Source of the DNA: a virus
Strand: one strand, 5' to 3'
Length of the DNA: 64,000 nucleotides
Virus record (IMG/VR): IMGVR_UViG_3300037487_001316
Coordinates: 70,155 to 134,154 of that record
The position numbers and the translations under genes are program-made. Within the stretch, counting starts at the first letter, position 1; each line of letters starts with the position of its first letter. Of the stretch, positions 19,583 through 62,548 are shown in pieces. A model generated the notes under the pieces. The model was not told where the DNA came from, did no database searches, and saw nothing but the letters and a program-made list of their open reading frames with translations.

Positions 19583-21025
19583 ATGAAACTCTCTAAAAAC
19601 ATTATTTTAAATTCTGACTCGTACAAATACAGTCAGTTCAATCAATACCCTAAAAATACCGAATATGTGTATTCTTACATTGAATCGCGTGGCGGTCAGT
19701 GGAACAAAACAGTCTTTTTCGGACTGCAGGCATTTATTAAGGAGTATTTGACTACTCCAATCACAAAGGAAGATATTGATGTTGCGGAAGCCATTATCAC
19801 TGCTCACGGTGAACCGTTTTATCGGGAAGGGTGGGAATATATTCTTACGGCGCACGAAGGTCGTCTTCCAGTCGTCATTAAAGCGGCCCCAGAAGGTTGT
19901 CTCATACCAACTAAGAACGTATTAGCCACAATTGAAAACACTGACCGCAACTGCGGCTGGCTGACATCGTTTCTTGAGACTGCAATTCTTCGCGCAATTT
20001 GGTATCCGACTACTGTAGCAACAAATAGTTACGAATCGAAGAAAATTATCCTCAACGCATTGGAGAAAACAGGTGACCCCACTCTTATTGATTTTAAGTT
20101 ACATGATTTTGGTGCTCGTGGCGTATCGAGCATGGAAAGTGCTGGTCTCGGGGGAGCAGCTCACCTCATTAACTTCATGGGTACTGACAATATTAGTGCT
20201 CTACTCTACGCTCGCGAGTATTATGGTACTGATATGGCAGGATTCTCCATTCCGGCCATGGAGCATAGTACAGTAACCAGCTGGGGACGCGAAGGAGAAG
20301 TAGACTCATACAGGAACATGCTGAAAACACACGGTAAGGCGGGTTCTCCGATTGCGTTTGTGTCTGACTCATACGACATTTACAATGCCTGCAAGATGTG
20401 GGGCACTGAACTGAAACAAGATGTGCTGGATTCCGGTGCAGTCGTTGTCATTCGTCCTGACTCAGGTGAGCCAAGCGAAGTAGTTACCAAGTGTCTCTAC
20501 ATTCTGGAAAAGTACTACGGTTCTGTGAAGAACGCTAAGGGCTTCCGAGTGCTGAACAATGTGCGTGTCATTCAAGGTGACGGCATCGATCACGCCACAA
20601 TTCGCTCAATTCTGTTTGTCATGGAACTTGCAGGCTTCTCTGCTGACAACGTGGCATTTGGTCAAGGTGGTGCGCTGCTTCAACAAGTCAACCGTGACAC
20701 ACTACAGTTTGCTATGAAGTGTTCTGCGATCGGTGTTCGTGAGTATGTAGAGTTTAGCGATGATCCAACATTTGTCACCCCGTCTCGGGTAGAATGGCGT
20801 GATGTGTTCAAGGATCCGATCACTGATCACGGCAAGGTCTCCAAGAAGGGTCGCGTAACTCTTTGGAACAGCGGTGGCGAGTATGTATCTGCTGTGGATC
20901 AACCACGCGGTTGGGCTGACAAGAGTTTCGGACCATGGGTTGAGGCTCTCTCGGAAGTTTATCGTGACGGTGTGTTGGTGAAAGAAATCACCTTTGAAGA
21001 AGTCCGTGCAAACGCTCGGAGGTAA
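19583..21025 (+). CDS. nadV: Nicotinamide phosphoribosyltransferase (NAMPT)
   Basis: DSYK, LHDFGARG, PAMEHS, VSDSYD, IRPDSG, IQGDG, AMKCS and SKKG motifs. Confidence 0.95.
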   Translation: MKLSKNIILNSDSYKYSQFNQYPKNTEYVYSYIESRGGQWNKTVFFGLQAFIKEYLTTPITKEDIDVAEAIITAHGEPFYREGWEYILTAHEGRLPVVIKAAPEGCLIPTKNVLATIENTDRNCGWLTSFLETAILRAIWYPTTVATNSYESKKIILNALEKTGDPTLIDFKLHDFGARGVSSMESAGLGGAAHLINFMGTDNISALLYAREYYGTDMAGFSIPAMEHSTVTSWGREGEVDSYRNMLKTHGKAGSPIAFVSDSYDIYNACKMWGTELKQDVLDSGAVVVIRPDSGEPSEVVTKCLYILEKYYGSVKNAKGFRVLNNVRVIQGDGIDHATIRSILFVMELAGFSADNVAFGQGGALLQQVNRDTLQFAMKCSAIGVREYVEFSDDPTFVTPSRVEWRDVFKDPITDHGKVSKKGRVTLWNSGGEYVSAVDQPRGWADKSFGPWVEALSEVYRDGVLVKEITFEEVRANARR

Positions 21026-21026
21026 C

Positions 21027-21323
21027 ATGAACATCTACACCGTCCGAAACAATCTGAAAAACACAATCGTTGGCAAGGAGGAACACCTTGCCAAACTCAT
21101 ACCTAATGCCCAAGAGGCAGTGACACCATTTGTTGCCGATCGTATTGCTATAAAAACAGCAATCCAATACCTTTCAGTCAACATTGGCGAACTCAGGCGT
21201 ATCCTTCGGGATGTGGAACAATGCTGTAAGAAGGCTACCGATCAATCCTGGGAGGCTAACCCAGATCGTATGGGCGGTGCCTCCACAGCAGACGAAATTA
21301 ATGAATCTAGAGCCTGGAGGTAA
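21027..21323 (+). CDS. Hypothetical protein
   Basis: GGAGG RBS before ATG 21027. Confidence 0.7.
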   Translation: MNIYTVRNNLKNTIVGKEEHLAKLIPNAQEAVTPFVADRIAIKTAIQYLSVNIGELRRILRDVEQCCKKATDQSWEANPDRMGGASTADEINESRAWR

Positions 21324-21345
21324 TTATGTCGAGCCGGGCTCTTTT

Positions 21346-24207
21346 TTATTCGTCTCTTGATGTAGCTACAGTTAGACCAGCTGTACCTAACTTCATTACA
21401 TCGCCCTTTCCTAATACGGTGCTTTGATAAATTAATGGAAATATCATTATATCATTGTCACCCTCATTAGGTCCTAATACATAACGACCATTTGGTCTTA
21501 ATCCTGCAGCATTTGCTTCAGCAGCACTTAAAGATATGCAAGGCAGCTTAGTGGCACCCTCAGTCTGTCTTTCTTTCTGTGTTCTAATATGGCTTGTCTT
21601 TAGTCCCGATGACTGTTCAAGTGATATCATTAATGTTGGTCTATTTTCATCATTACTGATATTCGCATAAAATTGTTTACCGAATTCTTTAGCAAAATCT
21701 ACATTAAAATCGATAGTGACTGATTTTTTAGATTGAGTATCTGTTCCACCACCGGAATTGATCCACTCCTGGGCATCACTTACGGCATCTTTATTACTCA
21801 GTGATACTCCTCTGTGCTTTTCTTCACCCCTTCTATCTAACACCATCCATTCTGTCTTGCCACCATCTGTTGATGGGCGATATCTAATTGTCCAACCATG
21901 AAAATCTATATTTACGGGTTTGGCCTTTGGTTTAGCTGCCTGTGCATCTGTGTGTTGTTTTCCTAATATATCAGCGAATTGATTCATATCGACTGCTTCC
22001 AAGAATTTACTTAATCTACTTTCATACGTTTCAGCTAGACCAGCCGCCTGCGCTTGCTGATCTAGTTGAGCTTTCTTTCTGACCAACTCCTTTTTCATGA
22101 CAGGACTCTTAGAAGTATGCGGATCCATTTGTATACGTTGTAATTCTTTACGGCGAGAGAAATAAGCATCTTTACTTAATGCTGGTGCGGCATCTTCTAC
22201 TTTTACAGTAGATCCTCTCCACTTATCAGTGACATCATTTAGTACATCTTGATAATTTACATCGTTAGATGGAGCACAACGATTGATGCCACCCATACCA
22301 CCTTCATTTACATCACCAATCATAGTTGCATAGTCATCCATTGTGAGTGTTCTGCCTTCCTGGCTTAACTCGATTAACTTCTCGGCTGCATTGTGCAAAT
22401 CTAAGTCGGTTTTTGCGTCTTCTTTGGCGTATTCCATGATCCGAATCAATAAAGGTACATCTACTGTTACTGTATCGGCAGGATTATTGATTTCTTCGCC
22501 TTCCGCCACACCTTTTCTGCCCATCTCACCTTGACGCATACTGTAGTCAGTATAATCATCTTCGGAGCCTTGGTCAAATGAACCATCTAAACTAGCATCA
22601 TTAAACGAAGTCGACCATGCATCTTGATATATAGAATCTTCTGGATCGTATCCTAAATGTTTAGCAACACGGGCGCCCATCTGTTGGATTGTCTCTGCAT
22701 CCTTGCCTTGGTCGTATAGCTTGATCAATACACCGGCAATCTTATCCTTCATTTGTTCGTATTTGATATAGCCGGGAGTAGAGCCTTCCGCCACACCTTG
22801 ACCCATTGTCTGAACCATACCTGGCTCGAATTTACGTAGATTGATTCTGCGTGCTTCTAACCATTTTTGTATATCAGGACGATTAAAATTGAAAATCTTA
22901 CATTCTGCATCAGCATATTGTTGTTGTAAGTCTCCTAACTGCTCTTTATCTTTAATTCTGGCATAAACTTTCTGTCCATTAGATAATTTAGCATAGAACA
23001 GTATATCCTTTCCAGCGTAACCATATGACTTATCTTTAAGTTTACCTAATGCACGTGGTAAATCTTGTTGTGTGACTCTTTTGGCCTTATCATAATCTGT
23101 TCGAGCTAATTCTTTTGCCTTATCTATTCTTGCCGGTACATATCTTTTCACAGTTTCGCGATCTAATTCATTAATTTGCTCTTCGTCCACATCTTGTTTT
23201 TCTGTTGCTGCCTTCTGTGCTGCCCTTCTTTTATCACTTTCACCTTGATGAAGTGTTGCTTGGTGAATTTTATGATAAAGTTCATCACCTTTCTTATAAT
23301 CGCCAGCGTCATCCGCAGCAGTTTTTTGTTTACCTATCGCAGCCTTATATTTGGTTATAATGTTGTCCATCTCATTTACTTCGGTAGATTCTTTCATCTG
23401 ACCTAATAACTCTTGTGCTTTTTCTACACTAATTAGAAATCTACCAAAACGCTGTGGATCGGCAGCTTTCTCTAGATATTCTTTACTATAACCCGATGAA
23501 GGCTTTTCTGCAGACGCAGGCGCAGATGTTTGTTGTTTACCGTTTTCTCTATCCTGTAATTCTGCCTTGGCATTATCAACACTTACCATAAACCGCCCGA
23601 AACGATTAGGATCTGCTGCTTTTTGCAAATATTCGGTACTATAACTACTGAGATCCTGCCGATTTTGTTGTTGTTGAACACGTTGATTTAATGTAACTTG
23701 ATCTTGTGGCTGAAACCCTTGCTCTGGATTAAGAGATACGCCGCCAGCATGTGCGCCACCCGAGCCTAGCGATCCCAATGCCACGGCACCAGCCGCCACC
23801 GCATTTTTCCACCCTGCTTCTGTGATCTCATCATCTCCATCTGCAAGTTTTTCCACAACAGTAACATTATTAGTTGATGTTTTCATTAGTCTGCCATCAG
23901 CTAGACGGAAAAATACCACATTCTGATCAATTCTTTCAACTTTACCTTCCATGTCTGTCTTATTAGTTCGGATATTATCACCTGGTCTGGGAGTATCAGA
24001 CATATCTTCGTTGGCTGTGGCACGTTCATCACGTTGTCTTTGTTCCGAACGATCTTGCTCTCTATGCCATTCATCATTACCGGAGTTTTTTCTGGGTGTA
24101 GAAGGAAGAGCCTTTAAATGCTTTCTTGATTGTAGATAATCAGTGACTCTTTTAGTAATTTCAGGTCCCGATGGAATATCGGCTTCATTAACTTGTGATA
24201 ACTTCAT
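21346..24207 (-). CDS. Modular internal-head polyprotein-like protein (953 aa)
   Basis: Own minus-strand GATAAATA (24230-24237) and AAGGA RBS; MKLSQVNE start; unrelated modules separated by [ILV]-x-E motifs. Confidence 0.7.
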   Translation of the reverse strand: MKLSQVNEADIPSGPEITKRVTDYLQSRKHLKALPSTPRKNSGNDEWHREQDRSEQRQRDERATANEDMSDTPRPGDNIRTNKTDMEGKVERIDQNVVFFRLADGRLMKTSTNNVTVVEKLADGDDEITEAGWKNAVAAGAVALGSLGSGGAHAGGVSLNPEQGFQPQDQVTLNQRVQQQQNRQDLSSYSTEYLQKAADPNRFGRFMVSVDNAKAELQDRENGKQQTSAPASAEKPSSGYSKEYLEKAADPQRFGRFLISVEKAQELLGQMKESTEVNEMDNIITKYKAAIGKQKTAADDAGDYKKGDELYHKIHQATLHQGESDKRRAAQKAATEKQDVDEEQINELDRETVKRYVPARIDKAKELARTDYDKAKRVTQQDLPRALGKLKDKSYGYAGKDILFYAKLSNGQKVYARIKDKEQLGDLQQQYADAECKIFNFNRPDIQKWLEARRINLRKFEPGMVQTMGQGVAEGSTPGYIKYEQMKDKIAGVLIKLYDQGKDAETIQQMGARVAKHLGYDPEDSIYQDAWSTSFNDASLDGSFDQGSEDDYTDYSMRQGEMGRKGVAEGEEINNPADTVTVDVPLLIRIMEYAKEDAKTDLDLHNAAEKLIELSQEGRTLTMDDYATMIGDVNEGGMGGINRCAPSNDVNYQDVLNDVTDKWRGSTVKVEDAAPALSKDAYFSRRKELQRIQMDPHTSKSPVMKKELVRKKAQLDQQAQAAGLAETYESRLSKFLEAVDMNQFADILGKQHTDAQAAKPKAKPVNIDFHGWTIRYRPSTDGGKTEWMVLDRRGEEKHRGVSLSNKDAVSDAQEWINSGGGTDTQSKKSVTIDFNVDFAKEFGKQFYANISNDENRPTLMISLEQSSGLKTSHIRTQKERQTEGATKLPCISLSAAEANAAGLRPNGRYVLGPNEGDNDIMIFPLIYQSTVLGKGDVMKLGTAGLTVATSRDE
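22498..22799 (-). repeat. Exact 17-bp direct repeat AAGGTGTGGCGGAAGGC (22783-22799 and 22498-22514) bounding an in-frame 285-bp unit
   Basis: Both copies read directly; each encodes G-V-A-E-G. Confidence 0.9.
23404..23648 (-). repeat. Duplicated ~30-aa motif within the polyprotein
   Basis: YSTEYLQKAADPNRFGRFMVSVDNA versus YSKEYLEKAADPQRFGRFLISVEKA. Confidence 0.85.
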
Positions 24208-24243
24208 AAGAAATCCTTTTCGTTTAAGCTATTTATCCATAAT

Positions 24244-24272
24244 TTGATCTTTCAGTTCACATTGTGTATAAT
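24244..24272 (+). promoter_or_regulatory. Sigma70-like promoter
   Basis: TTGATC-17-TATAAT with TG extension. Confidence 0.65.
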
Positions 24273-24338
24273 GACTTATCCCTAGGACTAAATACTAGTC
24301 CCTTGTATATCCAAGAAGGGAATTTAGGAGAAAGAAAG

Positions 24339-24881
24339 ATGATAACAGCAAAAATTCTCCTTGCATATCTTTTGAGCACAGCCAACTTCGTCGGAATCGA
24401 CGTTGACACATCAAAGATTGATCCAGAACAAGCGTATTGCTTGGCTGAGAACATCTATTATGAGGCCAGAAATGAAGATATTCGAGGTCAATTTGCAGTT
24501 GCTTCTGTTACCCTAAATCGTGCAAATGATGCACGATTTCCAAATACTGTATGTGGTGTGGTTAAATATACTGCTGTATCTCGTATCAGTAAAAAACTTG
24601 TCTGCGCGTTTTCCTGGTATTGCGAAAATGACAAGAAGGGTAGAGAAATACCTGTAAGAAATAAAGACGGAACCGTTAATCAACGAGTAGTTGATCAATT
24701 TCAGGTTGCTAGTATTGTAGCGATTACAGCACTTGGCGGAACTGTCGAAGACAACACAAATGGGGCAACCCATTTTCACAACCCATACACGAGTCAGCCG
24801 GCATGGCGTAATGAGTTAAAGAGAACCATAAGATTAGGTAATCACGATTTTTATAAGATGCCACCACAGAAAGTAGATTAA
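24339..24881 (+). CDS. Cell wall hydrolase, SleB/Hydrolase_2 family
   Basis: CLAENIYYEARNE, VTLNR, FSW, GATHFH and GNHDFY motifs; hydrophobic N-terminus. Confidence 0.9.
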   Translation: MITAKILLAYLLSTANFVGIDVDTSKIDPEQAYCLAENIYYEARNEDIRGQFAVASVTLNRANDARFPNTVCGVVKYTAVSRISKKLVCAFSWYCENDKKGREIPVRNKDGTVNQRVVDQFQVASIVAITALGGTVEDNTNGATHFHNPYTSQPAWRNELKRTIRLGNHDFYKMPPQKVD

Positions 24882-27870: not shown

Positions 27871-29265
27871 ATGACTTTTGCACTATTAACTCTCTTATCA
27901 GCCTTATCTTTGGCTGCTGTAGCTGATTGGTTCTCTATAATCGGTTTTATGGCAATTTACGCCGCTTCTCCACTACATGCCCTTATTATGGGCATAGTAT
28001 TGGCATTAGCAAAATTAGTTACTACCAGTTGGCTTTACAGAAATTGGAAATTCATTAATTGGCGGCTTAAATTTCCACTAATAGGATTTATATTAGCTCT
28101 TATGATTGCCACTAGTATAGGTACTTTCGGCTTTTTGAGCAAAGCCCATCTAGAGCAAACTGGTGGTACAATAGATAATGGTGCTAAAGTAGAGAGATTA
28201 GAGCAACAAATAGCAAGAGAAAAATCAGTAATTGCAGATGATGAAAAAGTTATCACACAATTGGATGCAACAATTAATTCTTATATTGGAAAAGATAGAA
28301 CAGATAAATCTTTGGCAGTTAGAAAAAGTCAGGCACCGCAGCGTAAACAATTAAGAGATGATATTGATGCCTCACAGAAGCGTATTGATACATTCAGTGA
28401 TGAAAAATTGAAATTACAATCAGAAGTTAGAAAGCAACAGTTGGATGTAGGTCCTATTAGGTATATTGCGGAATTATTTTACGGTGTGGCAGCTGATGCC
28501 GGAAAGAATATAGAAGCAGCGGTGCGGATATTCACTCTTCTTATTGTATCGACACTTGATCCACTTGCTGTTATACTATTAGTAGCTGCAAACCATACAT
28601 TGTTAAGATTACGAGATGAGAAAAAGAAGTACGATTCGGAAGAGATTGACGGGGTACCTAAGTCAGGGAGTATTGTGGCCGATGTCCCGATCAAAGTGGT
28701 TAAGGAAGCTGCACAAGATATCAAATCTCCCGCCAAAACCTCTACGAATACCGAGATACGAAAGGTGATCAATGAGGAAGAAGATACAGTATTGGAGAAC
28801 ATCCAACTCAACAGATCCGTTGATGCGCCTTTACCCGTCATACGTCAACCTAGTTATTCGAGAGTTAGCAGCGGGGAGGACACTAATCGTATTCCCACAT
28901 CAATCGCCACCGAGATATTGGATGAGATACAGGAAGAACCTGTAAATACAACTATACAAGAATCGGCACCTCATTTTATCCCACAAAAACTTAATGAAGA
29001 AGAGAAAAATATACAGGCAACGGATGAAAGTGAGTATATCAGGGAAGACATCCTGGCCGTTCATACCGATACCCAGACCGATGTCACCCCACATACAGAG
29101 GCCGAGAAAACTGAAGAAATATTCGAAGCACGACCGGGTATTATTAAAGAACTGGCGCAAAATGATACCACATCGGTGGCCGAGCCTGTCGCGCCCGGTA
29201 CCAAGAATAGGTATCCGACAGCCTTAAGTTGGTTAGCAGAATTTAAAAGGACACAAAATGGATAA
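27871..29265 (+). CDS. Multi-pass membrane protein with coiled coil and acidic disordered tail
   Basis: Three N-terminal TM segments, TSIGTFGFLS, coiled coil, DPLAV TM. Confidence 0.7.
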   Translation: MTFALLTLLSALSLAAVADWFSIIGFMAIYAASPLHALIMGIVLALAKLVTTSWLYRNWKFINWRLKFPLIGFILALMIATSIGTFGFLSKAHLEQTGGTIDNGAKVERLEQQIAREKSVIADDEKVITQLDATINSYIGKDRTDKSLAVRKSQAPQRKQLRDDIDASQKRIDTFSDEKLKLQSEVRKQQLDVGPIRYIAELFYGVAADAGKNIEAAVRIFTLLIVSTLDPLAVILLVAANHTLLRLRDEKKKYDSEEIDGVPKSGSIVADVPIKVVKEAAQDIKSPAKTSTNTEIRKVINEEEDTVLENIQLNRSVDAPLPVIRQPSYSRVSSGEDTNRIPTSIATEILDEIQEEPVNTTIQESAPHFIPQKLNEEEKNIQATDESEYIREDILAVHTDTQTDVTPHTEAEKTEEIFEARPGIIKELAQNDTTSVAEPVAPGTKNRYPTALSWLAEFKRTQNG

Positions 29266-30493
29266 AACTGAAGAAACTAATGTTAAGAAGCTTATTAATT
29301 GTTCCTATTGTGGGAAAAGTAGACATCAAGTAGAACAAATGGTTGAAGGTCCGGAATTTGGTGGCAAAAATATTTATATATGTAATGAATGTGTAGATGT
29401 TACATATAATATTCTACATACTGAAGAAGTAGATGTTAGCATAAAGAAAAAGAAAGAAAAAATTCCAACTCCTGAACAAATTAAGGAGTTTTTAGATACA
29501 TATGTCATTGGACAAGATGGTGCTAAGGTAGCAATTTCTGTTGCGGTCTATAATCACTATAAACGAATCAATAATAAGACTAAAACCGAAATTGAAAAAT
29601 CTAATCTATTAATGATAGGTGAAAGTGGCTGTGGTAAGACACTTACAGTAAAGACCATTGCGAAACTGTTTGACATACCTTATGTAATTGCTGATGCTAC
29701 AACACTAACCGAAGCTGGATATGTTGGTGAAGATGTAGAAAATTTAATTAGACGGTTGGTACAAAATGCTGATGACGATCTAGAGAAAGCCCGCCTCGGT
29801 ATTATTTTTATTGATGAAATTGATAAGAAGAGTCGTAGAAGTGAGTCTGCTTCTGTTAGTAGAGATGTTTCAGGCGAAGGTGTACAACAAGCATTATTGA
29901 AACTTATTGAAGGCACTATTGTAAAGATAGACGATGGGTATGATGATCCTGTTGATTTTGATACAAAGGATATTCTATTTGTTTGCAGCGGCGCATTTGT
30001 GGGATTAGATGAAGTTATCAGAAAAAATCGGTCAAAGACAAGCATCGGTATAGGTGCAAACCTAAACATGAAGTCTTCTTTCTCAAATGTAGTGAAAGAT
30101 ATACAACCAGACGATCTTATTAAATACGGTCTTATTCCAGAGTTCGTTGGCCGTTGCCCTGTCACAGTTGTATTTGATGATCTTACTGCGGATATGATGA
30201 TTAGAATATTAAAAGAACCGAAAAATAGTATTGTAGAACAATTTAAGGCATTATTTAAGTATGAAGGCGTCACTTTAGACTTCGATGATAAATACCTACA
30301 TAACGTTGCAGAAAGTTGTTTAAAACAGAAAATTGGAGCAAGAGGTTTGCGTTCAATTATGGAGAAAGATCTCCAGGCTACTCAATTTATTCTGCCCAGA
30401 TTAGCAAAGGATGGTGTTAACAAGATTTTTGTTGATGCTAGTGGAACAATTAAACATGTATACAAGGCAAAGAAACGAGCAAACAATGAGTAA
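29258..30493 (+). CDS. clpX: ClpX AAA+ unfoldase
   Basis: CSYC/ICNEC zinc domain, GESGCGKT, TEAGYVGED, DEIDK, RDVSGEGVQQ and GARGLR motifs. Confidence 0.95.
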   Translation: MDKTEETNVKKLINCSYCGKSRHQVEQMVEGPEFGGKNIYICNECVDVTYNILHTEEVDVSIKKKKEKIPTPEQIKEFLDTYVIGQDGAKVAISVAVYNHYKRINNKTKTEIEKSNLLMIGESGCGKTLTVKTIAKLFDIPYVIADATTLTEAGYVGEDVENLIRRLVQNADDDLEKARLGIIFIDEIDKKSRRSESASVSRDVSGEGVQQALLKLIEGTIVKIDDGYDDPVDFDTKDILFVCSGAFVGLDEVIRKNRSKTSIGIGANLNMKSSFSNVVKDIQPDDLIKYGLIPEFVGRCPVTVVFDDLTADMMIRILKEPKNSIVEQFKALFKYEGVTLDFDDKYLHNVAESCLKQKIGARGLRSIMEKDLQATQFILPRLAKDGVNKIFVDASGTIKHVYKAKKRANNE

Positions 30494-45037: not shown

Positions 45038-45490
45038 ATGACAAAAAAAATTGATTTAAACAGATACACTAAATTTGTAGAAGGTGTAACAAGTACAGCA
45101 AGTAATGATCTAACAACCTTTATGGATTCGTTAGATAGGGTTGATGCAAATTTCGAAGTGTTTGATGGAGGGGCAACTGCTAAACATGGACCAGATGTTA
45201 ATGTACCATTGCTTATTACAGCAGCAATGGGTATGTCTGGCGAGACAGGTGAGTTTTCTGAAATCGTAAAGAAAATTCTATTTCATGGTAAAAATCTTGA
45301 TACAGATACACATAAGCATTTACAGAAGGAATTAGGTGATATAATTTGGTATTGGACAAATGCCTGCAGAGCGTTAGGTGTGGACCCAGATCAAGTCATT
45401 GCTGATAATGTATCTAAATTGGAATCACGCTACCCGGGCGGTAAGTTTGATGCATTCTATAGTGAAAATAGGAAAGACGGTGACATCTGA
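45038..45490 (+). CDS. mazG: MazG-like NTP pyrophosphohydrolase
   Basis: GETGEFSEIVKK, KELGDIIWY and NVSKLESRY motifs. Confidence 0.88.
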   Translation: MTKKIDLNRYTKFVEGVTSTASNDLTTFMDSLDRVDANFEVFDGGATAKHGPDVNVPLLITAAMGMSGETGEFSEIVKKILFHGKNLDTDTHKHLQKELGDIIWYWTNACRALGVDPDQVIADNVSKLESRYPGGKFDAFYSENRKDGDI

Positions 45491-45848
45491 TTTAAATGAC
45501 TTTCGAAAGATAATGCTGCCTATGATCCGGCGGATTATCCCATCTATTGTTGCAGCTGAAATAATTGGGGTTCAGCCTATGGCTCCTTTTACTGATTATA
45601 AATATTTATTATTTAAGGATTATCTTGAGGTAGTAAGTAACATGATATCAGTACATACAGCCATCCGTCCATTTATGAGAGAGAATCAACTTGAGCCAAA
45701 CCATCACTATAGACCGTGGTTAGAAGAGCATATTGGAGTGCAAGGTTTAGATTGGAATTGGGATATTCATAGTGTAAATGGTAACTTATTGGCAATAGAT
45801 TTCGCAAATCAAGAAATGGCAACATTATTTGAGCTAACATGGCCATAA
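45480..45848 (+). CDS. Small protein: gp23 Gol-peptide-like N-terminus fused to an F-x-x-x-x-x-A-x-x-F-x-L-x-W domain
   Basis: GTG 45480 after AGGA; MIRRIIPSIVAAEIIGVQPM. Confidence 0.7.
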   Translation: MTSDLNDFRKIMLPMIRRIIPSIVAAEIIGVQPMAPFTDYKYLLFKDYLEVVSNMISVHTAIRPFMRENQLEPNHHYRPWLEEHIGVQGLDWNWDIHSVNGNLLAIDFANQEMATLFELTWP

Positions 45849-60328: not shown

Positions 60329-62548
60329 ATGGCTAAAAAAGTAGAAAAGATGATTGAACGTGCAGTTTCTATTGCAAACGATAATAATCATGAATATGTA
60401 ACACTTGAGCATATACTATTATCTCTTTTACACGAGAAAGATGTAAATGAACTTATTTTAGCAATCGGCGGACAGCCTGCTAAAATTAAGACTGATTCCA
60501 TACAATTTTTGGGTGATCCTGCACTAAAGAAGCCAGATGCACTCAAAGATGTACCAGCAAAGCGTACGGCCGTTTTAAATCGCACATTTCAGCGGGCACT
60601 CACACAACTTGTATTCAGCGGCAGAAATGAATTAAATAACGAATCAATTTTACTAAGTATTCTTAGTGAAGAAACTAGTCATGCTTATTATTTCTTAGGT
60701 AAGCACGGCGTATCGCGTGAAAAGATTATTGCATATCTACGCAAGACAGAAGAAAAACAAGGACCAGAGGAAACATTCCTTGATCATTTCGCTCGTAACT
60801 TAAATAAAGAAGCAGCAGATGGATCTATTGACCCTGTTATTGGCCGCGAAAAAGAAGTTATTGATACAATTGAAATTTTAGCTAGACGCAAAAAGAATAA
60901 TGTAATCTATGTCGGCGAGCCAGGTGTTGGTAAAACAGCATTAGCAGAAGGACTTGCACTTAAGATTGTTAATAAAGAAGTTCCAAAAGCATTGCACGAT
61001 AAGGTTGTGTATAGTTTGGACATCGGTGCATTACTTGCAGGAACTAAATTCCGTGGCGACTTTGAAGAGCGTTTAAAAGGCGTGCTTGAGCAAGTTAAGA
61101 AGATGGGCAATTGTATTATGTTCATCGACGAAATTCATATGATTCTGGGAGCAGGTGCAACAACAGGTAGTCAAATGGATGCAGGCAATTTGCTAAAACC
61201 GATGCTCGCTAAAGGTCAGTTAATGTGTGTTGGTGCAACCACATATGACGAATTTCACGAATACTTTGAAAAGGATAAGGCACTATTACGCCGCTTCCAA
61301 AAGTATGATATTGAACAACCTTCAGCAGAAGAAACAAAACTCATCCTAAAAGGTATTGCTTATCAATACGAGAAGTTCCACGGCGTTACATTTGAAGAAG
61401 GTGCTACCGATATGTGTGTTGATTTAGCTGATCGATATCTAAAATCAAAATACTTTCCAGATAAAGCAATTGATATTATGGACTCAGCAGGTGCAATCTC
61501 TAAGTTAAAAGAAGAAAAGATTGTAACAATAGATTGTGTTGTTCAACAAGCAGCAAAGATTGCACATATTCCTGCTGATATGATTGATATGAAGGAAAAT
61601 ACAGCATTAGAAAATCTTGCACCAAGAATGAAGGATAAAGTTTATGGTCAGGATGGCGCTATTGATAAGCTTGTAGAAGCTATCTTTATGTCTAAGGCAG
61701 GATTGCGTAACCCGAGCAAACCTATTGGTAGTTTCTTATTTACTGGACCAACAGGCACTGGTAAAACTTACACGGCCAAAAAGCTCGCAGAGACACTTGG
61801 CGTACATTTTGCACGATTTGACATGTCGGAATACATGGAAAAACATACCGTATCCAAGTTCATCGGCGCACCTCCCGGCTATGTAGGCCACGGCGAAGGC
61901 AAGATGGGAGAAGGACAACTTATTCAAACAATTGATACAAATCCAAATTGTGTATTATTGCTAGATGAAATTGAAAAGGCTAATCCGGATGTTATTACTG
62001 TGCTATTGCAGGTAATGGATGATGGTCGTCTAACTTCTGCTAAAGGTAAGACAGTTGATTTTTCAAATGTTGTTATTATTATGTCAGCTAATCTAGGTGC
62101 AGCAGATGCAGAAAAATTAAAGATTGGGTTTGGTAATCAAGATAACGAAGGCGCTGTCGAAGCTGAAATTAAACGATTCTTTAGTCCCGAGTTTAGAAAT
62201 CGGTTAGATGCTACTGTTAAATTCAATAAGTTAACAATGAATGAGATGTTCTTAATTGTTAATTCTGAAGTTGAAAAGACAGAGGTTATGCTTACCCCTA
62301 AGAATATTTCACTCAATGTTACACAACAGGCTCGCGATTGGCTTGCTAAAAACGGTTACGATCCTAAGATGGGCGCCAGACCGTTTGAGAGACTATTTGA
62401 AGAACGGATTAAGAAACCATTATCCAAAGAAATATTGTTTGGTAAATTAAAGACTGGTGGCCGAGCAAATGTTGATTACGATATTATAACTGATGGAATT
62501 AAGGTAGAGGTACTAGATCCTATTATAGAACCTCAATTGATAATTTAA
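60329..62548 (+). CDS. clpA: ClpA AAA+ unfoldase
   Basis: HEYVTLEH N-domain, two Walker A motifs ([16 protein letters not shown]), no middle coiled coil, IGF loop. Confidence 0.93.

Follow-up and report, generated by a model that had tools for sequence, protein, structure and literature searches.

A protease-site-like linker with a fixed DNA spelling at the module borders of a mosaic phage gene

Described systems with packaged cargo or exchangeable modules

The T4 internal proteins IPI-III and Alt are diverse cargo placed behind a conserved targeting and cut signal; they carry a short N-terminal propeptide, are cleaved at hydrophobic-X-Glu sites and are encoded by late head-associated genes (PMC9026906, PMC3012670). 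T4 gp21 cuts after L/I-X-E, and propeptides of the capsid targeting sequence (CTS) type comprise 10-19 residues, residues 8 and 10 being determinants of their processing (PMC9026906). The gene analysed here is similar in these respects, with the propeptide and the cleavage predicted and late expression read from the sequence, and the presence of Peptidase_S77 and Gp23 in some relatives is a further likeness to the T4 head-processing system. However, T4 internal proteins are single and small with one or two cut sites (PMC9026906, PMC3012670), whereas the present protein is a chain of at least 5-6 unrelated modules with internal cut-site-like linkers. Its leader has eight residues and Val at P3, unlike the T4 CTS, to which it is likened by form and not by sequence homology. 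For T4 internal proteins, the parts of these sources that were available mention no cut site with a fixed DNA spelling (PMC9026906, PMC3012670).

The giant phages phiKZ, 201phi2-1 and SPN3US also cut many head-internal proteins after Glu at very short motifs (PMC9026906, PMC5694885, PMC7411985). They differ in their P3 preference, phiKZ-type proteases cutting after S/A-X-E (PMC9026906), and in having separate genes instead of cassette chains with one repeated linker; the available portions of these papers report no fixed codon spelling (PMC9026906, PMC5694885, PMC7411985). Polyvalent proteins likewise contain many unrelated domains per polypeptide and are presumed to be packaged and injected (PMC5512222). 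Zeta_toxin, AAA_33, CTP_transf_like, ART-PolyVal and ParB_N domains were found in relatives that share modules with our protein, and the ART-PolyVal, Zeta_toxin and ParB_N domains among them are a likeness to the polyvalent group. In contrast, processing of polyvalent proteins is predicted mainly by zincin-like metallopeptidase domains, and our protein, unlike them, has no Pfam domain. Cassette recombination has been raised as a possibility for one polyvalent system, and the words 'linker' and 'shuffling' are not in the main text of that paper (PMC5512222).

At the DNA level, the PeSLs of T4-type phages are short conserved motifs flanking variable modules, which recombination swaps, deletes or inserts. 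As far as the accessible descriptions go, PeSLs consist of an intergenic sigma-70-like promoter and a terminator stem-loop and move whole genes, whereas the motif described here is coding, has no stem-loop and bounds in-frame parts of a protein. A PeSL-type cassette was rejected for the present locus, as the motif lies inside an ORF and its copies form no common stable hairpin. In gp38, too, short conserved coding motifs part variable segments, and recombination at or near the motifs gives rise to chimeras. There, according to the parts of the description at hand, a single domain has the motifs as its structural core and the segments as its loops. This differs from the present motif, which resembles a protease site and is predicted to lie in a disordered linker between autonomous domains. 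The literature search returned no paper on this linker.

Integron gene cassettes are mobile and bounded by a recurrent short attC site. They are whole genes and need a tyrosine recombinase together with a folded, imperfectly palindromic attC. The locus resembles integrons in its short recurrent border site, but it has no attC-like fold or whole-gene cassette, and no tyrosine recombinase was found in the five records searched.

The gene and its two copies of the 17-mer

The window is a stretch of 64,000 nucleotides from a contig of 134,154 bases that is 35% complete. Its minus-strand ORF at 21346-24207 encodes a mosaic protein of 953 aa (P0001), a putative cargo polyprotein, and is a lone minus-strand gene amid plus-strand nucleotide and NAD metabolism genes. 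No Pfam family matched the 953-aa protein, and parts of it were matched by 2142 representative proteins (E<=0.001). A late-promoter-like box, GATAAATA, is located 22 nt upstream of the ATG (24230-24237, minus strand) and at a like distance also precedes the sheath, tube, head-tail adaptor and two virion-protein genes. ATAAATA occurs 8-50 nt upstream of 24 of the 197 contig ORFs, compared with about 2.6 expected by a hand estimate. The promoter-like motif points to late expression of the gene alongside the structural genes.

Ends of local alignments on the protein piled up near aa ~66, ~130, ~470, ~568 and ~633; when 326 local alignments to 215 relatives were used, the ends clustered at aa 466-475, 566-575, ~130 and ~633. 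I-T-E|A, a degenerate junction, is found at the ~130 cluster (aa 128-130, 23818-23826, minus strand; alignment ends at aa 126-135) and V-N-E|G at the ~633 cluster. The protein thus contains at least five separately conserved modules, and AlphaFold gave three confident folds within aa 376-640.

The 17-mer AAGGTGTGGCGGAAGGC occurs as two exact minus-strand copies whose starts are 285 nt apart. In coding order, the upstream copy (22783-22799) encodes (Q)GVAEG at aa 470-475 and the downstream copy (22498-22514) encodes (K)GVAEG at aa 565-570. Both are in frame in the ORF, and the 285 nt correspond to 95 codons, as an earlier note on this DNA had described. No further copy was present in the 134,154-base contig; even when up to three mismatches were allowed, the window still gave just two matches (0.03 expected), and two or more copies were seen in 0/100 shuffles. 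The same note had called the GTG, GCG and GGC codons uncommon, and the codon usage of 147 contig ORFs agrees with this (GTG 13.8% of Val, GCG 8.1% of Ala, GGC 22% of Gly). By hand calculation from contig codon frequencies, the chance that another GVAEG is written in exactly these codons is about 0.001, and the chance that two GVAEG agree in any five codons is about 0.008. The sole other GVAE in a long contig frame, in a thymidylate-synthase-like ORF, is encoded by GGC GTA GCC GAA. The description of the flanks as unrelated was essentially right, except that Met-Gly is found one or two codons upstream of both copies (a 13-nt near-repeat, family D11).

The body of the 95-codon cassette (22515-22782, minus strand; aa 476-565) consists of a helical domain, with helices at aa 479-537 in the AlphaFold model, followed by an acidic disordered tail. 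In the same model, aa 470-478 and aa 544-574 have pLDDT values below 50, and the domains on either side exceed 90 (pTM 0.36), which puts both motifs in predicted disordered linkers between domains.

Module exchange and fixed spelling

Homologues of the cassette were found in 43 of the 215 stored relatives, amid many different neighbours, with borders that were mostly hydrophobic-x-E (several rows have no such site). At the DNA level, cassette similarity in eight loci (76-79%) begins at query nt 209-212, and the left 17-mer starts at nt 212. The cassette is missing from P0002, P0090, P0110 and one contig of run X13, so that the empty alleles for which the earlier note had proposed to search do exist. 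P0090, which lacks it, shows 99.2% identity at aa 567-953 and 87% at aa 438-475. Conversely, in the otherwise unrelated protein P0003 the match is confined to the cassette region, aa 466-570, with 98.1% identity. The X13 contig links 22504 to 22818 via 25 different letters. In all four empty alleles the site reads N-V-T/K-E-G and is one residue shorter; the X13 allele has only the last 7 nt in common with the 17-mer and carries no intact copy. With just these 7 nt shared, a target-site duplication is not supported.

Replacement was also observed. One contig of run X14 is identical over 22331-22514 and differs afterwards, and an X14 contig is identical over 22781-23027 and unrelated before that point. 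Contigs of run X13 stop matching the window at 23187 and at 23196 and continue with other sequence; both positions fall in the decayed junction Q-D-V-D-E-E (aa 338-343; 23179-23196, minus strand), which is off the consensus 18-mer at 5/18 positions and retains the rare GTG. In addition, X13 differs by a net 65 codons between the borders K-V-E|D and F-L-E|A, neither of which is written in the fixed spelling. These comparisons show the linker to be where modules begin and end, the cassette being present, absent, replaced or placed in an unrelated protein, always in frame. The window offers a clean natural experiment, in which near-identical wild strains have the one site filled, empty or replaced. 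As indels the size of a module are also seen where the border lacks the fixed spelling, the fixed DNA is not required for gain or loss of a module. As the empty allele is N-V-T/K-E-G and not a single 17-mer, one crossover between the 17-mers is insufficient for the polymorphism. Survivorship also accounts in part for breakpoints in linkers, since recombinants that break the frame or the fold do not persist.

The exact 17-mer was found in at least 120 IMG/VR stretches, compared with 2 for the reversed 17-mer and 53, all single-copy, for a synonymous 17-mer made of common codons; these 53 loci contained 0 copies of the fixed 12-mer. Among the 120 listed stretches, there were 168 copies and 36 loci with two or more, and 47 of 48 successive spacings were multiples of 3 (the 80 and 120 seed loci were picked via the 17-mer itself). 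Each large genome has 1-4 copies of the fixed 12-mer. Protein homology gave 23 loci with 24 distinct GVAE sites, of which 16 were spelled GGTGTGGCGGAA, compared with about 0.1 expected from codon usage by a hand estimate; this motif-independent sample is small and was partly reached through the same cassette. Two GVAE sites without the usual Q/E/K ahead of the motif, a context judged by hand, use other codons. The spelling of a control peptide, a conserved one from the aa 571-635 module, varied freely in nine loci with up to four codons per residue.

The fixed tract also takes in the common codons GGT and GAA. Upstream it includes the last two bases of the adjoining codon, which can encode Q, E or K, as well as the third base of codon -2. 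In the -2 codon before the core (K/E/Q), the third base was G in 120 cases versus A in 43, opposite to the genome preference. Since the tract covers common codons and a varying preceding codon, it looks like one conserved DNA or RNA word and not like a choice of rare codons. The linker spelling (core GGTGTGGCGGAA, about 18-20 nt in total) was shown by these comparisons to be fixed at synonymous sites across diverged phages, and protein-level selection alone does not explain it. The earlier note had proposed such a conservation check and had listed random codons at other GVAEG copies, or a 17-mer unique to this spot, as findings that would speak against it; neither was found.

Candidate cut sites of the form hydrophobic-x-E|small are present at 4/5 inferred module borders and after residue 8, with Val or Ile at P3. 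V-A-E|G resembles the T4 gp21 rule L/I-X-E, yet its P3 is Val. The eight-residue leader (24184-24207, minus strand) ends V-N-E|A and, by analogy with the T4 CTS (PMC9026906), is a candidate capsid-targeting propeptide. The pattern MK[LIVTM][ST]x[LIVFM]xE occurred in the first 40 residues of 14 of 216 stored proteins, many of them fragments, P0001 included; it was at the very N-terminus in 12 and at residue 19 in 2, and some of the modules that follow are unrelated. Peptidase_S77 above the cut-off, together with Gp23, was found in two of the four large contigs that carry the 17-mer (G001 and G003), and in both of them the major capsid ORF has L-L-E|G among its first 20 residues. No Peptidase_S77 match was obtained in the window's 35% complete contig, G002 (99% complete) or G004.

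Explanations for the linker

As one joint claim, we consider it probable that the gene encodes a late polyprotein of independently folding modules joined by disordered hydrophobic-x-Glu|small linkers, that the 17-mer is the commonest version of the linker (Q/K/E)-G-V-A-E|G, and that the source is a giant phage from fresh water, uncultured and related to T4-type phages. In this reading, a prohead protease of the T4 gp21 type would cut the linkers after Glu, each module would be freed inside the head as separate cargo, and the leader would serve as the capsid-targeting propeptide. The identical short tracts may let general recombination (RecA/UvsX-like) or annealing swap cassettes between co-infecting genomes or between genes, and the spelling may be kept because the tracts permit this exchange. 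Copies that keep the spelling would stay exchangeable and be homogenised, while drifted copies (I-T-E|A, V-N-E|G, Q-D-V-D-E-E, N-V-T-E-G) would retain the form of a cut site but drop out of exchange. Zeta_toxin, bracketed by two motifs, and the ART-PolyVal and ParB_N domains in relatives with shared modules are in keeping with a cargo role. A RecA/UvsX-like gene was present in 5/5 records. A tract of 17-20 nt is short for RecA-type exchange, which counts against the exchange step, as does the low number of 12-mer copies per large genome.

More tentatively, the word of about 18-20 nt may have evolved into a self-propagating signal for in-frame exchange, comparable to an attachment site but coding and in need of general recombination alone, by which freshwater T4-type giant phages trade ready-to-release cargo modules. 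The traded modules would likely be anti-defence or take-over effectors. If this is true, the same six residues are also the head-protease cut site, so every exchanged module would arrive equipped for packaging and release. One short sequence would then do two jobs, guiding the protease as protein and serving as an in-frame exchange joint as DNA. It would explain the quick diversification of injected cargo in giant phages. Module borders in thousands of unannotated phage proteins could be located by a simple rule, and foreign proteins could be packed into phage heads after a natural design.

That the linkers are flexible hinges of an intact, uncut multidomain protein, their resemblance to protease sites being coincidental, is unlikely. 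It fits with the Val at P3, outside the quoted T4 rule, with the lack of a protease match on the window's contig and in 2/4 large relatives, and with polyvalent proteins, which in the available part of PMC5512222 are often thought to be single polypeptides or self-processed by metallopeptidase domains. However, hydrophobic-x-Glu is mostly kept at borders with decayed spelling (several contexts have no site), which points to selection on P3 and P1 and not on flexibility alone; the N-terminal leader and the early L-L-E|G of the capsid ORFs in the two S77-bearing relatives have a like form. We regard as quite unlikely a linker that is a protein hinge or cut site only, with a spelling that serves the mRNA or translation and not DNA exchange, for example through a pause at rare GUG/GCG or Shine-Dalgarno-like AAGGUG or through a site for an RNA-binding factor. 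Rare codons do fall exactly in disordered linkers between folded domains, the tract includes AAGG and GGAAGG, and module indels are also seen at borders lacking the fixed spelling. Against it, the tract spans common codons and parts of two preceding codons, no start codon lies downstream at Shine-Dalgarno distance, the two copies have no RNA structure or stable hairpin in common (folding z +0.92 and -1.82) and no Rfam family matched. It would also leave unexplained the whole-cassette differences at word edges in near-identical strains.

The earlier note had taken the 17-mer for a dual-use site, both a recombination or insertion target and a protease cut. An in-frame DNA swap point that encodes a V-x-E cut-site-like peptide fits the comparative data; the site-specific insertion target and the co-occurring recombinase were not borne out. 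Insertion of cassettes at the 17-mer by a specialised enzyme, whether site-specific recombinase, transposase or homing nuclease, with the copies as target-site duplication, could account for exact direct repeats around a module missing from close relatives and for a word conserved far past coding need. It is nevertheless improbable: dyad symmetry is lacking in the 17-mer, no inverted repeat lies there or nearby, and the cassette holds no enzyme gene, only 95 codons of helical domain. The recombinase search covered two families, Phage_integrase and Resolvase. The former was found in 0/5 records, two of them 97-99% complete, and the latter gave nothing above the Pfam cut-off in the five records, the only match being a weak one in G004 (18.3 bits versus a cut-off of 23.3; E 3.2e-4). 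With no recombinase above the cut-off and no single 17-mer in the empty allele, the site-specific insertion model is not supported. An origin of the repeat by chance, through recent local tandem duplication or from faulty assembly can be practically dismissed, even though this contig has just two copies. The shuffles never gave two copies, contigs of runs X10 and X12 (not flagged as possible window sources) span each copy unchanged, the word recurs in at least 120 other IMG/VR stretches, and the unrelated flanks speak against tandem duplication.

Two modules lie downstream of the cassette. The small helical module (aa 571-635; 22303-22497, minus strand) has the conserved core D-V-P-L-L-I-R..E-Y-A-K-E-D, ends V-N-E|G and is modelled with pLDDT above 90 at aa ~580-630. 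An uncultured phage record of 735 kb has the same domain at the C-terminal end of a 293-aa ORF. The C-terminal module (318 aa, aa 636-953; 21349-22302, minus strand) is the most widely conserved part of the protein, with many representative matches over aa ~633-952. Its predicted structure has a mean pLDDT of 78.5; the best fold matches (E 1.5e-6 to 9e-5) were uncharacterised proteins from three phages of Sinorhizobium/Rhizobium, and the match to a PUR-alpha repeat was weak (E 1.3e-3, TM 0.14-0.26).

The 17-mer and its carrier gene

Two exact copies of the 17-mer AAGGTGTGGCGGAAGGC were located on the minus strand, in frame within the ORF (21346-24207, minus strand) for the 953-aa protein P0001. 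In coding order, the upstream copy (22783-22799) encodes Q-G-V-A-E-G (aa 470-475) and the downstream copy (22498-22514) encodes K-G-V-A-E-G (aa 565-570). The earlier note had reported such a pair, with starts 285 nt apart, and had remarked that its codons are rare; both statements were borne out, as among the 147 ORFs of the contig GTG makes up 13.8 % of Val, GCG 8.1 % of Ala and GGC 22 % of Gly codons. When the window was searched with up to three mismatches, no copy beyond the two was found, and in the entire 134,154-base record the 17-mer is present only at these sites. Shuffled sequence gave a mean of 0.03 matches, and two copies were reached in 0 of 100 shuffles. Based on contig usage, the chance that a second GVAEG repeats the five codons is approximately 0.001 (these codons) to 0.008 (any identical codons) by hand calculation.

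No family was found for P0001 in Pfam, only a weak match was observed in PHROGs (E 0.012), and no phage record was matched by the gene in a megablast search. The sole tblastn match, a domain of 54 residues, was to a 735-kb uncultured record present in two copies. A total of 2142 representative proteins matched P0001 at E-values of 0.001 or lower, all to pieces of it, and the ends of 326 local alignments with 215 stored relatives cluster at aa ~66-70, 126-135, 466-475, 566-575 and 626-635. These piecewise matches and clustered ends indicate that P0001 is a mosaic of separately conserved modules. When aa 376-640 were modelled with AlphaFold (30-row alignment; mean pLDDT 76.6, pTM 0.36), three confident domains were obtained and the pLDDT fell below 50 in exactly three spots (aa 470-478, aa 544-574 and beyond aa 635); both GVAEG motifs are thus predicted to lie in disordered linkers. 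Beyond uncharacterised phage proteins, a fold search with the C-terminal module showed no more than a weak similarity to PUR repeats, and therefore no function is claimed for it. The second module of P0001 contains two Y-L-x-K-A-A-D-P-x-R-F-G-R-F units (aa ~188-213 and ~239-264), encoded by a direct repeat of 76 nt with 71 % identity (23417-23492 and 23570-23645, in the minus-strand gene; spacing 153 nt or 51 codons). The small helical domain D-V-P-L-x-I-R..E-Y-A-K-E-D recurs, with 50 % identity, at the end of a 293-aa ORF from an uncultured phage record of 735 kb (locus L003; LR756501.1, 66847-67728), so this module travels far outside the clade.

The IMG/VR virus record of 134,154 bases, of which the window takes up 70155-134154, was judged 35 % complete and its source is therefore a giant phage. 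The P0001 gene is a single minus-strand gene amid plus-strand neighbours (ribonucleotide reductase, NAD salvage, an endolysin-like protein and thymidylate synthase, with clamp loader and Lon-like ATPase genes farther away). Two homologues of AAA+/Lon-like ATP-dependent proteases are encoded on the plus strand at 29258-30493 and 60329-62548, the longer one having 739 aa and matching phrog_4871 at E 2.4e-246. The box GATAAATA (24230-24237) sits 22 nt before the ATG of the P0001 gene. The word ATAAATA was found 8-50 nt upstream of 24 of the 197 contig ORFs, against approximately 2.6 of 85 occurrences by chance (hand estimate), and all five late-box ORFs scanned from the structural region encode virion components (tail sheath, tail tube, head-tail adaptor and two virion structural proteins). 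Given this excess and the structural-gene company, we read the promoter-like box as a putative late promoter of the clade and the P0001 gene as a probable late gene. The recurrent box of this phage, seen at 24230-24237 and at 23 other contig sites, has G (or C/A-G) and not T in first place and lies some 20-35 nt ahead of start codons. Exact matches to the T4 late box TATAAATA number 3 in the window, fewer than the 10 expected. Another late-box ORF (184 aa; G000:C1:66971-67522, which is L209:472-1023) has a nine-residue leader ending in I-T-E and no family in a PHROG search, and may encode a further head-targeted protein. A 156-aa ORF (45378-45848, plus strand) resembles a stand-alone capsid-peptide segment: similarity to the N-terminal part of major head proteins of the T4 type spans its residues 32-69 (27.1 bits to Pfam Gp23 positions 3-31; phrog_138 positions 50-87).

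Linkers mark module borders and have a spelling fixed across phages

A search of other genomes revealed that the 17-mer is widespread, the exact word being present in at least 120 IMG/VR stretches. Its letters in reverse order occurred in two stretches. The synonymous version with the commonest codons occurred in 53, every one single-copy; by our reading, the peptides around these 53 sites have no evident relation to the mosaic family or contain stop codons, and zero copies of the fixed 12-mer (the GVAE-coding core of the 17-mer) were found there. Among the matches listed for 120 stretches, 168 copies were counted, 36 stretches held two or more, and occurrence on both strands of one stretch was never seen; among the same matches, 47 of 48 successive spacings (range 150-4236 nt) were multiples of three.

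When GVAE sites in long frames were collected from the first 80 of the at least 120 seed loci, 150 of 191 read GGTGTGGCGGAA, a sample biased by its own 17-mer seed. The codons of GVAE sites elsewhere, for which the earlier note had proposed a test of synonymous-site conservation, were also checked at 23 loci ascertained by protein homology rather than by the seed. Here 16 of 24 distinct GVAE sites shared the one spelling GGTGTGGCGGAA, where approximately 0.1 of 24 would be expected from codon usage (hand estimate), and 8 of 24 carried the full 17-mer. Two GVAE sites of this set that lack the usual Q/E/K ahead, and that we read as not linker-like, use other codons. As a control, the codons of a peptide that is strongly conserved in the next module varied among nine distinct loci, with up to four codons per residue and Ala never encoded by GCG. 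The fixed tract extends beyond the five codons: directly upstream of them, the codon for Q, E or K ends in AA in 18 of 18 protein-ascertained cases. At the codon before that, whose third base is outside the 17-mer seed, G-ending K/E/Q codons outnumber A-ending ones (120 vs 43 in 253 unique contexts), whereas contig usage favours A-ending codons for K, E and Q (59-79 %). Both preferences put the length of the conserved word at about 18-20 nt, and it acts as a nucleotide word rather than a codon preference.

At the protein level, 65 of 89 proteins (P0001 and 88 matches to aa 440-660) had one or more G-[VILMA]-[AST]-E-[GSAN] sites, with up to nine per protein, nearly always in the form (E/Q/K)(Q/K)GVAE(G/A/S). 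Homologues of the cassette, the 95-codon module between the two 17-mers, were found in 43 of the 215 stored relatives, and the sequences before and after it are highly varied. Its borders in these relatives are mostly a hydrophobic-x-E with a small or acidic residue after it, including where a different spelling of this form stands in place of GVAEG; several rows are without such a site. The other inferred borders of P0001 are I-T-E↓A (aa 128-131) and V-N-E↓G (aa 633-636), and its N-terminus reads M-K-L-S-Q-V-N-E↓A (arrows mark the candidate cut after Glu). A leader pattern MK[LIVTM][ST]x[LIVFM]xE was observed near the N-terminus of 14 of 216 stored proteins, many of the 216 being fragments; these include P0001, and in some leader-bearing proteins the next module is unrelated.

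Relatives gain, lose, replace and share the cassette at the linker

Alleles without the module were looked for in relatives and were present. The stored relative P0090 shares 99.2 % identity with aa 567-953 (387 residues, gap-free) and 87 % with aa 438-475, the two parts being joined directly, and in P0002 and P0110 the cassette is likewise absent with the flanking parts joined directly. The empty junction of these three proteins reads N-V-T-E-G, one residue fewer than Q-G-V-A-E-G. The relative P0003 (687 aa) has 98.1 % identity limited to aa 466-570, i.e., the cassette and both linkers, the rest of the protein being unrelated; its gene may belong to the 65 % of this genome that the record lacks. 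DNA homologues of the cassette at eight loci (76-79 % identity) start at query nt 209-212 and end at nt 487-512, the left 17-mer starting at nt 212 and the right one occupying nt 497-513. The protein-homology locus search yielded seven loci in IMG/VR and four in JGI metagenomes, near-identical relatives not being among them, and an exact 40-mer of the cassette was found in 0 IMG/VR stretches.

Contigs of four metagenome runs (X10, X12, X13 and X14) were compared with the window over 21000-24500, with only covered stretches counted as evidence and runs of small word share (X15-X20) set aside. In a 1727-nt X13 contig, 25 other letters separate 22504 from 22818; this is the empty allele, whose junction we read as N-V-K-E-G. 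This contig stops matching at 23196 and a second X13 contig at 23187, the two edges of the decayed junction Q-D-V-D-E-E (aa 338-343). This junction retains GTG but departs from the consensus 18-mer at 5 of 18 positions. Two X14 contigs are identical to the window at 22331-22514 and 22781-23027, after which they continue with 9 and 255 letters that do not match it. The switch from match to non-match falls at the outer edges of the two 17-mers. In a further X13 allele (21999-22214), 214 nt of the first part of the C-terminal module are replaced by 19 letters, a net difference of 65 codons. Its borders (K-V-E↓D and F-L-E↓A) have the fixed spelling at neither side, which speaks against a simple story.

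Candidate mechanism and related systems

Several other origins of the repeated word were considered and rejected. A local tandem duplication was ruled out since the flanks of the two copies differ, and an internal translation start behind the Shine-Dalgarno-like AAGGTG because no start codon comes after it. As for RNA elements, an Rfam search of the gene gave only two sub-threshold snoRNA-like matches, both away from the linkers, and the structures predicted for the two copies were inconsistent with each other. The X10 and X12 contigs, which were not flagged as possible sources of the window DNA, span each copy without difference, which rules out an assembly artefact. Target-site duplication was excluded by the empty allele (N-V-T/K-E-G). 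The earlier note had proposed a 17-mer that is both an insertion target and a protease cut site, and had suggested looking for a co-occurring recombinase. This reading is supported in part: a dual-use junction is supported; a dedicated insertion system and target-site duplication are not, in view of the empty allele and of the five records searched, where no tyrosine recombinase was found and no serine recombinase above cut-off.

We infer instead that exchange maintains the linker spelling. With short tracts in common, cassettes could be swapped in frame by general recombination or annealing; copies keeping the word would stay exchangeable and be homogenised, and drifted copies would retain only the cut-site form. 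A RecA/UvsX-like protein is encoded in all five records, and the large genomes carry one to four copies of the fixed 12-mer each, all on one strand per genome.

By analogy with T4-type heads, the linker itself would be a candidate prohead-protease site. According to passages of PMC9026906, T4 gp21 cleaves after L/I-X-E and phiKZ-type enzymes after S/A-X-E, and the propeptides of T4 internal proteins have 10-19 residues, processing hinging on residues 8 and 10 (P3 and P1). In T4, replacing the Glu by Asp is reported in the same paper to prevent processing. Peptidase_S77 and Gp23 were detected above cut-offs in two of four large 17-mer-bearing contigs, and the capsid ORFs of these two contain L-L-E↓G in the first 20 residues. 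Peptidase_S77 was found neither in the window's contig (35 % complete) nor in one 99 %-complete relative.

The closest functional analogue is the T4 system of capsid-targeting sequence and gp21 for internal proteins. As the closest evolutionary analogues we regard PeSL-mediated modular shuffling (PMC2839356) and the gp38 exchanges at conserved glycine-rich motifs (PMC3157838). A coding linker with fixed synonymous sites doubling as a cut site was not found in the literature outside subscription journals and supplementary files, and a string match for GVAEG returned unrelated papers only. The closest architectural class for P0001 is that of polyvalent proteins. Neither "linker" nor "shuffling" occurs in the main text of the polyvalent-protein paper (PMC5512222). 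Relatives sharing modules with P0001 carry Zeta_toxin, ART-PolyVal and ParB_N domains, and in the stored relative P0070 Zeta_toxin (aa 370-539) lies between motifs at 353 and 607.
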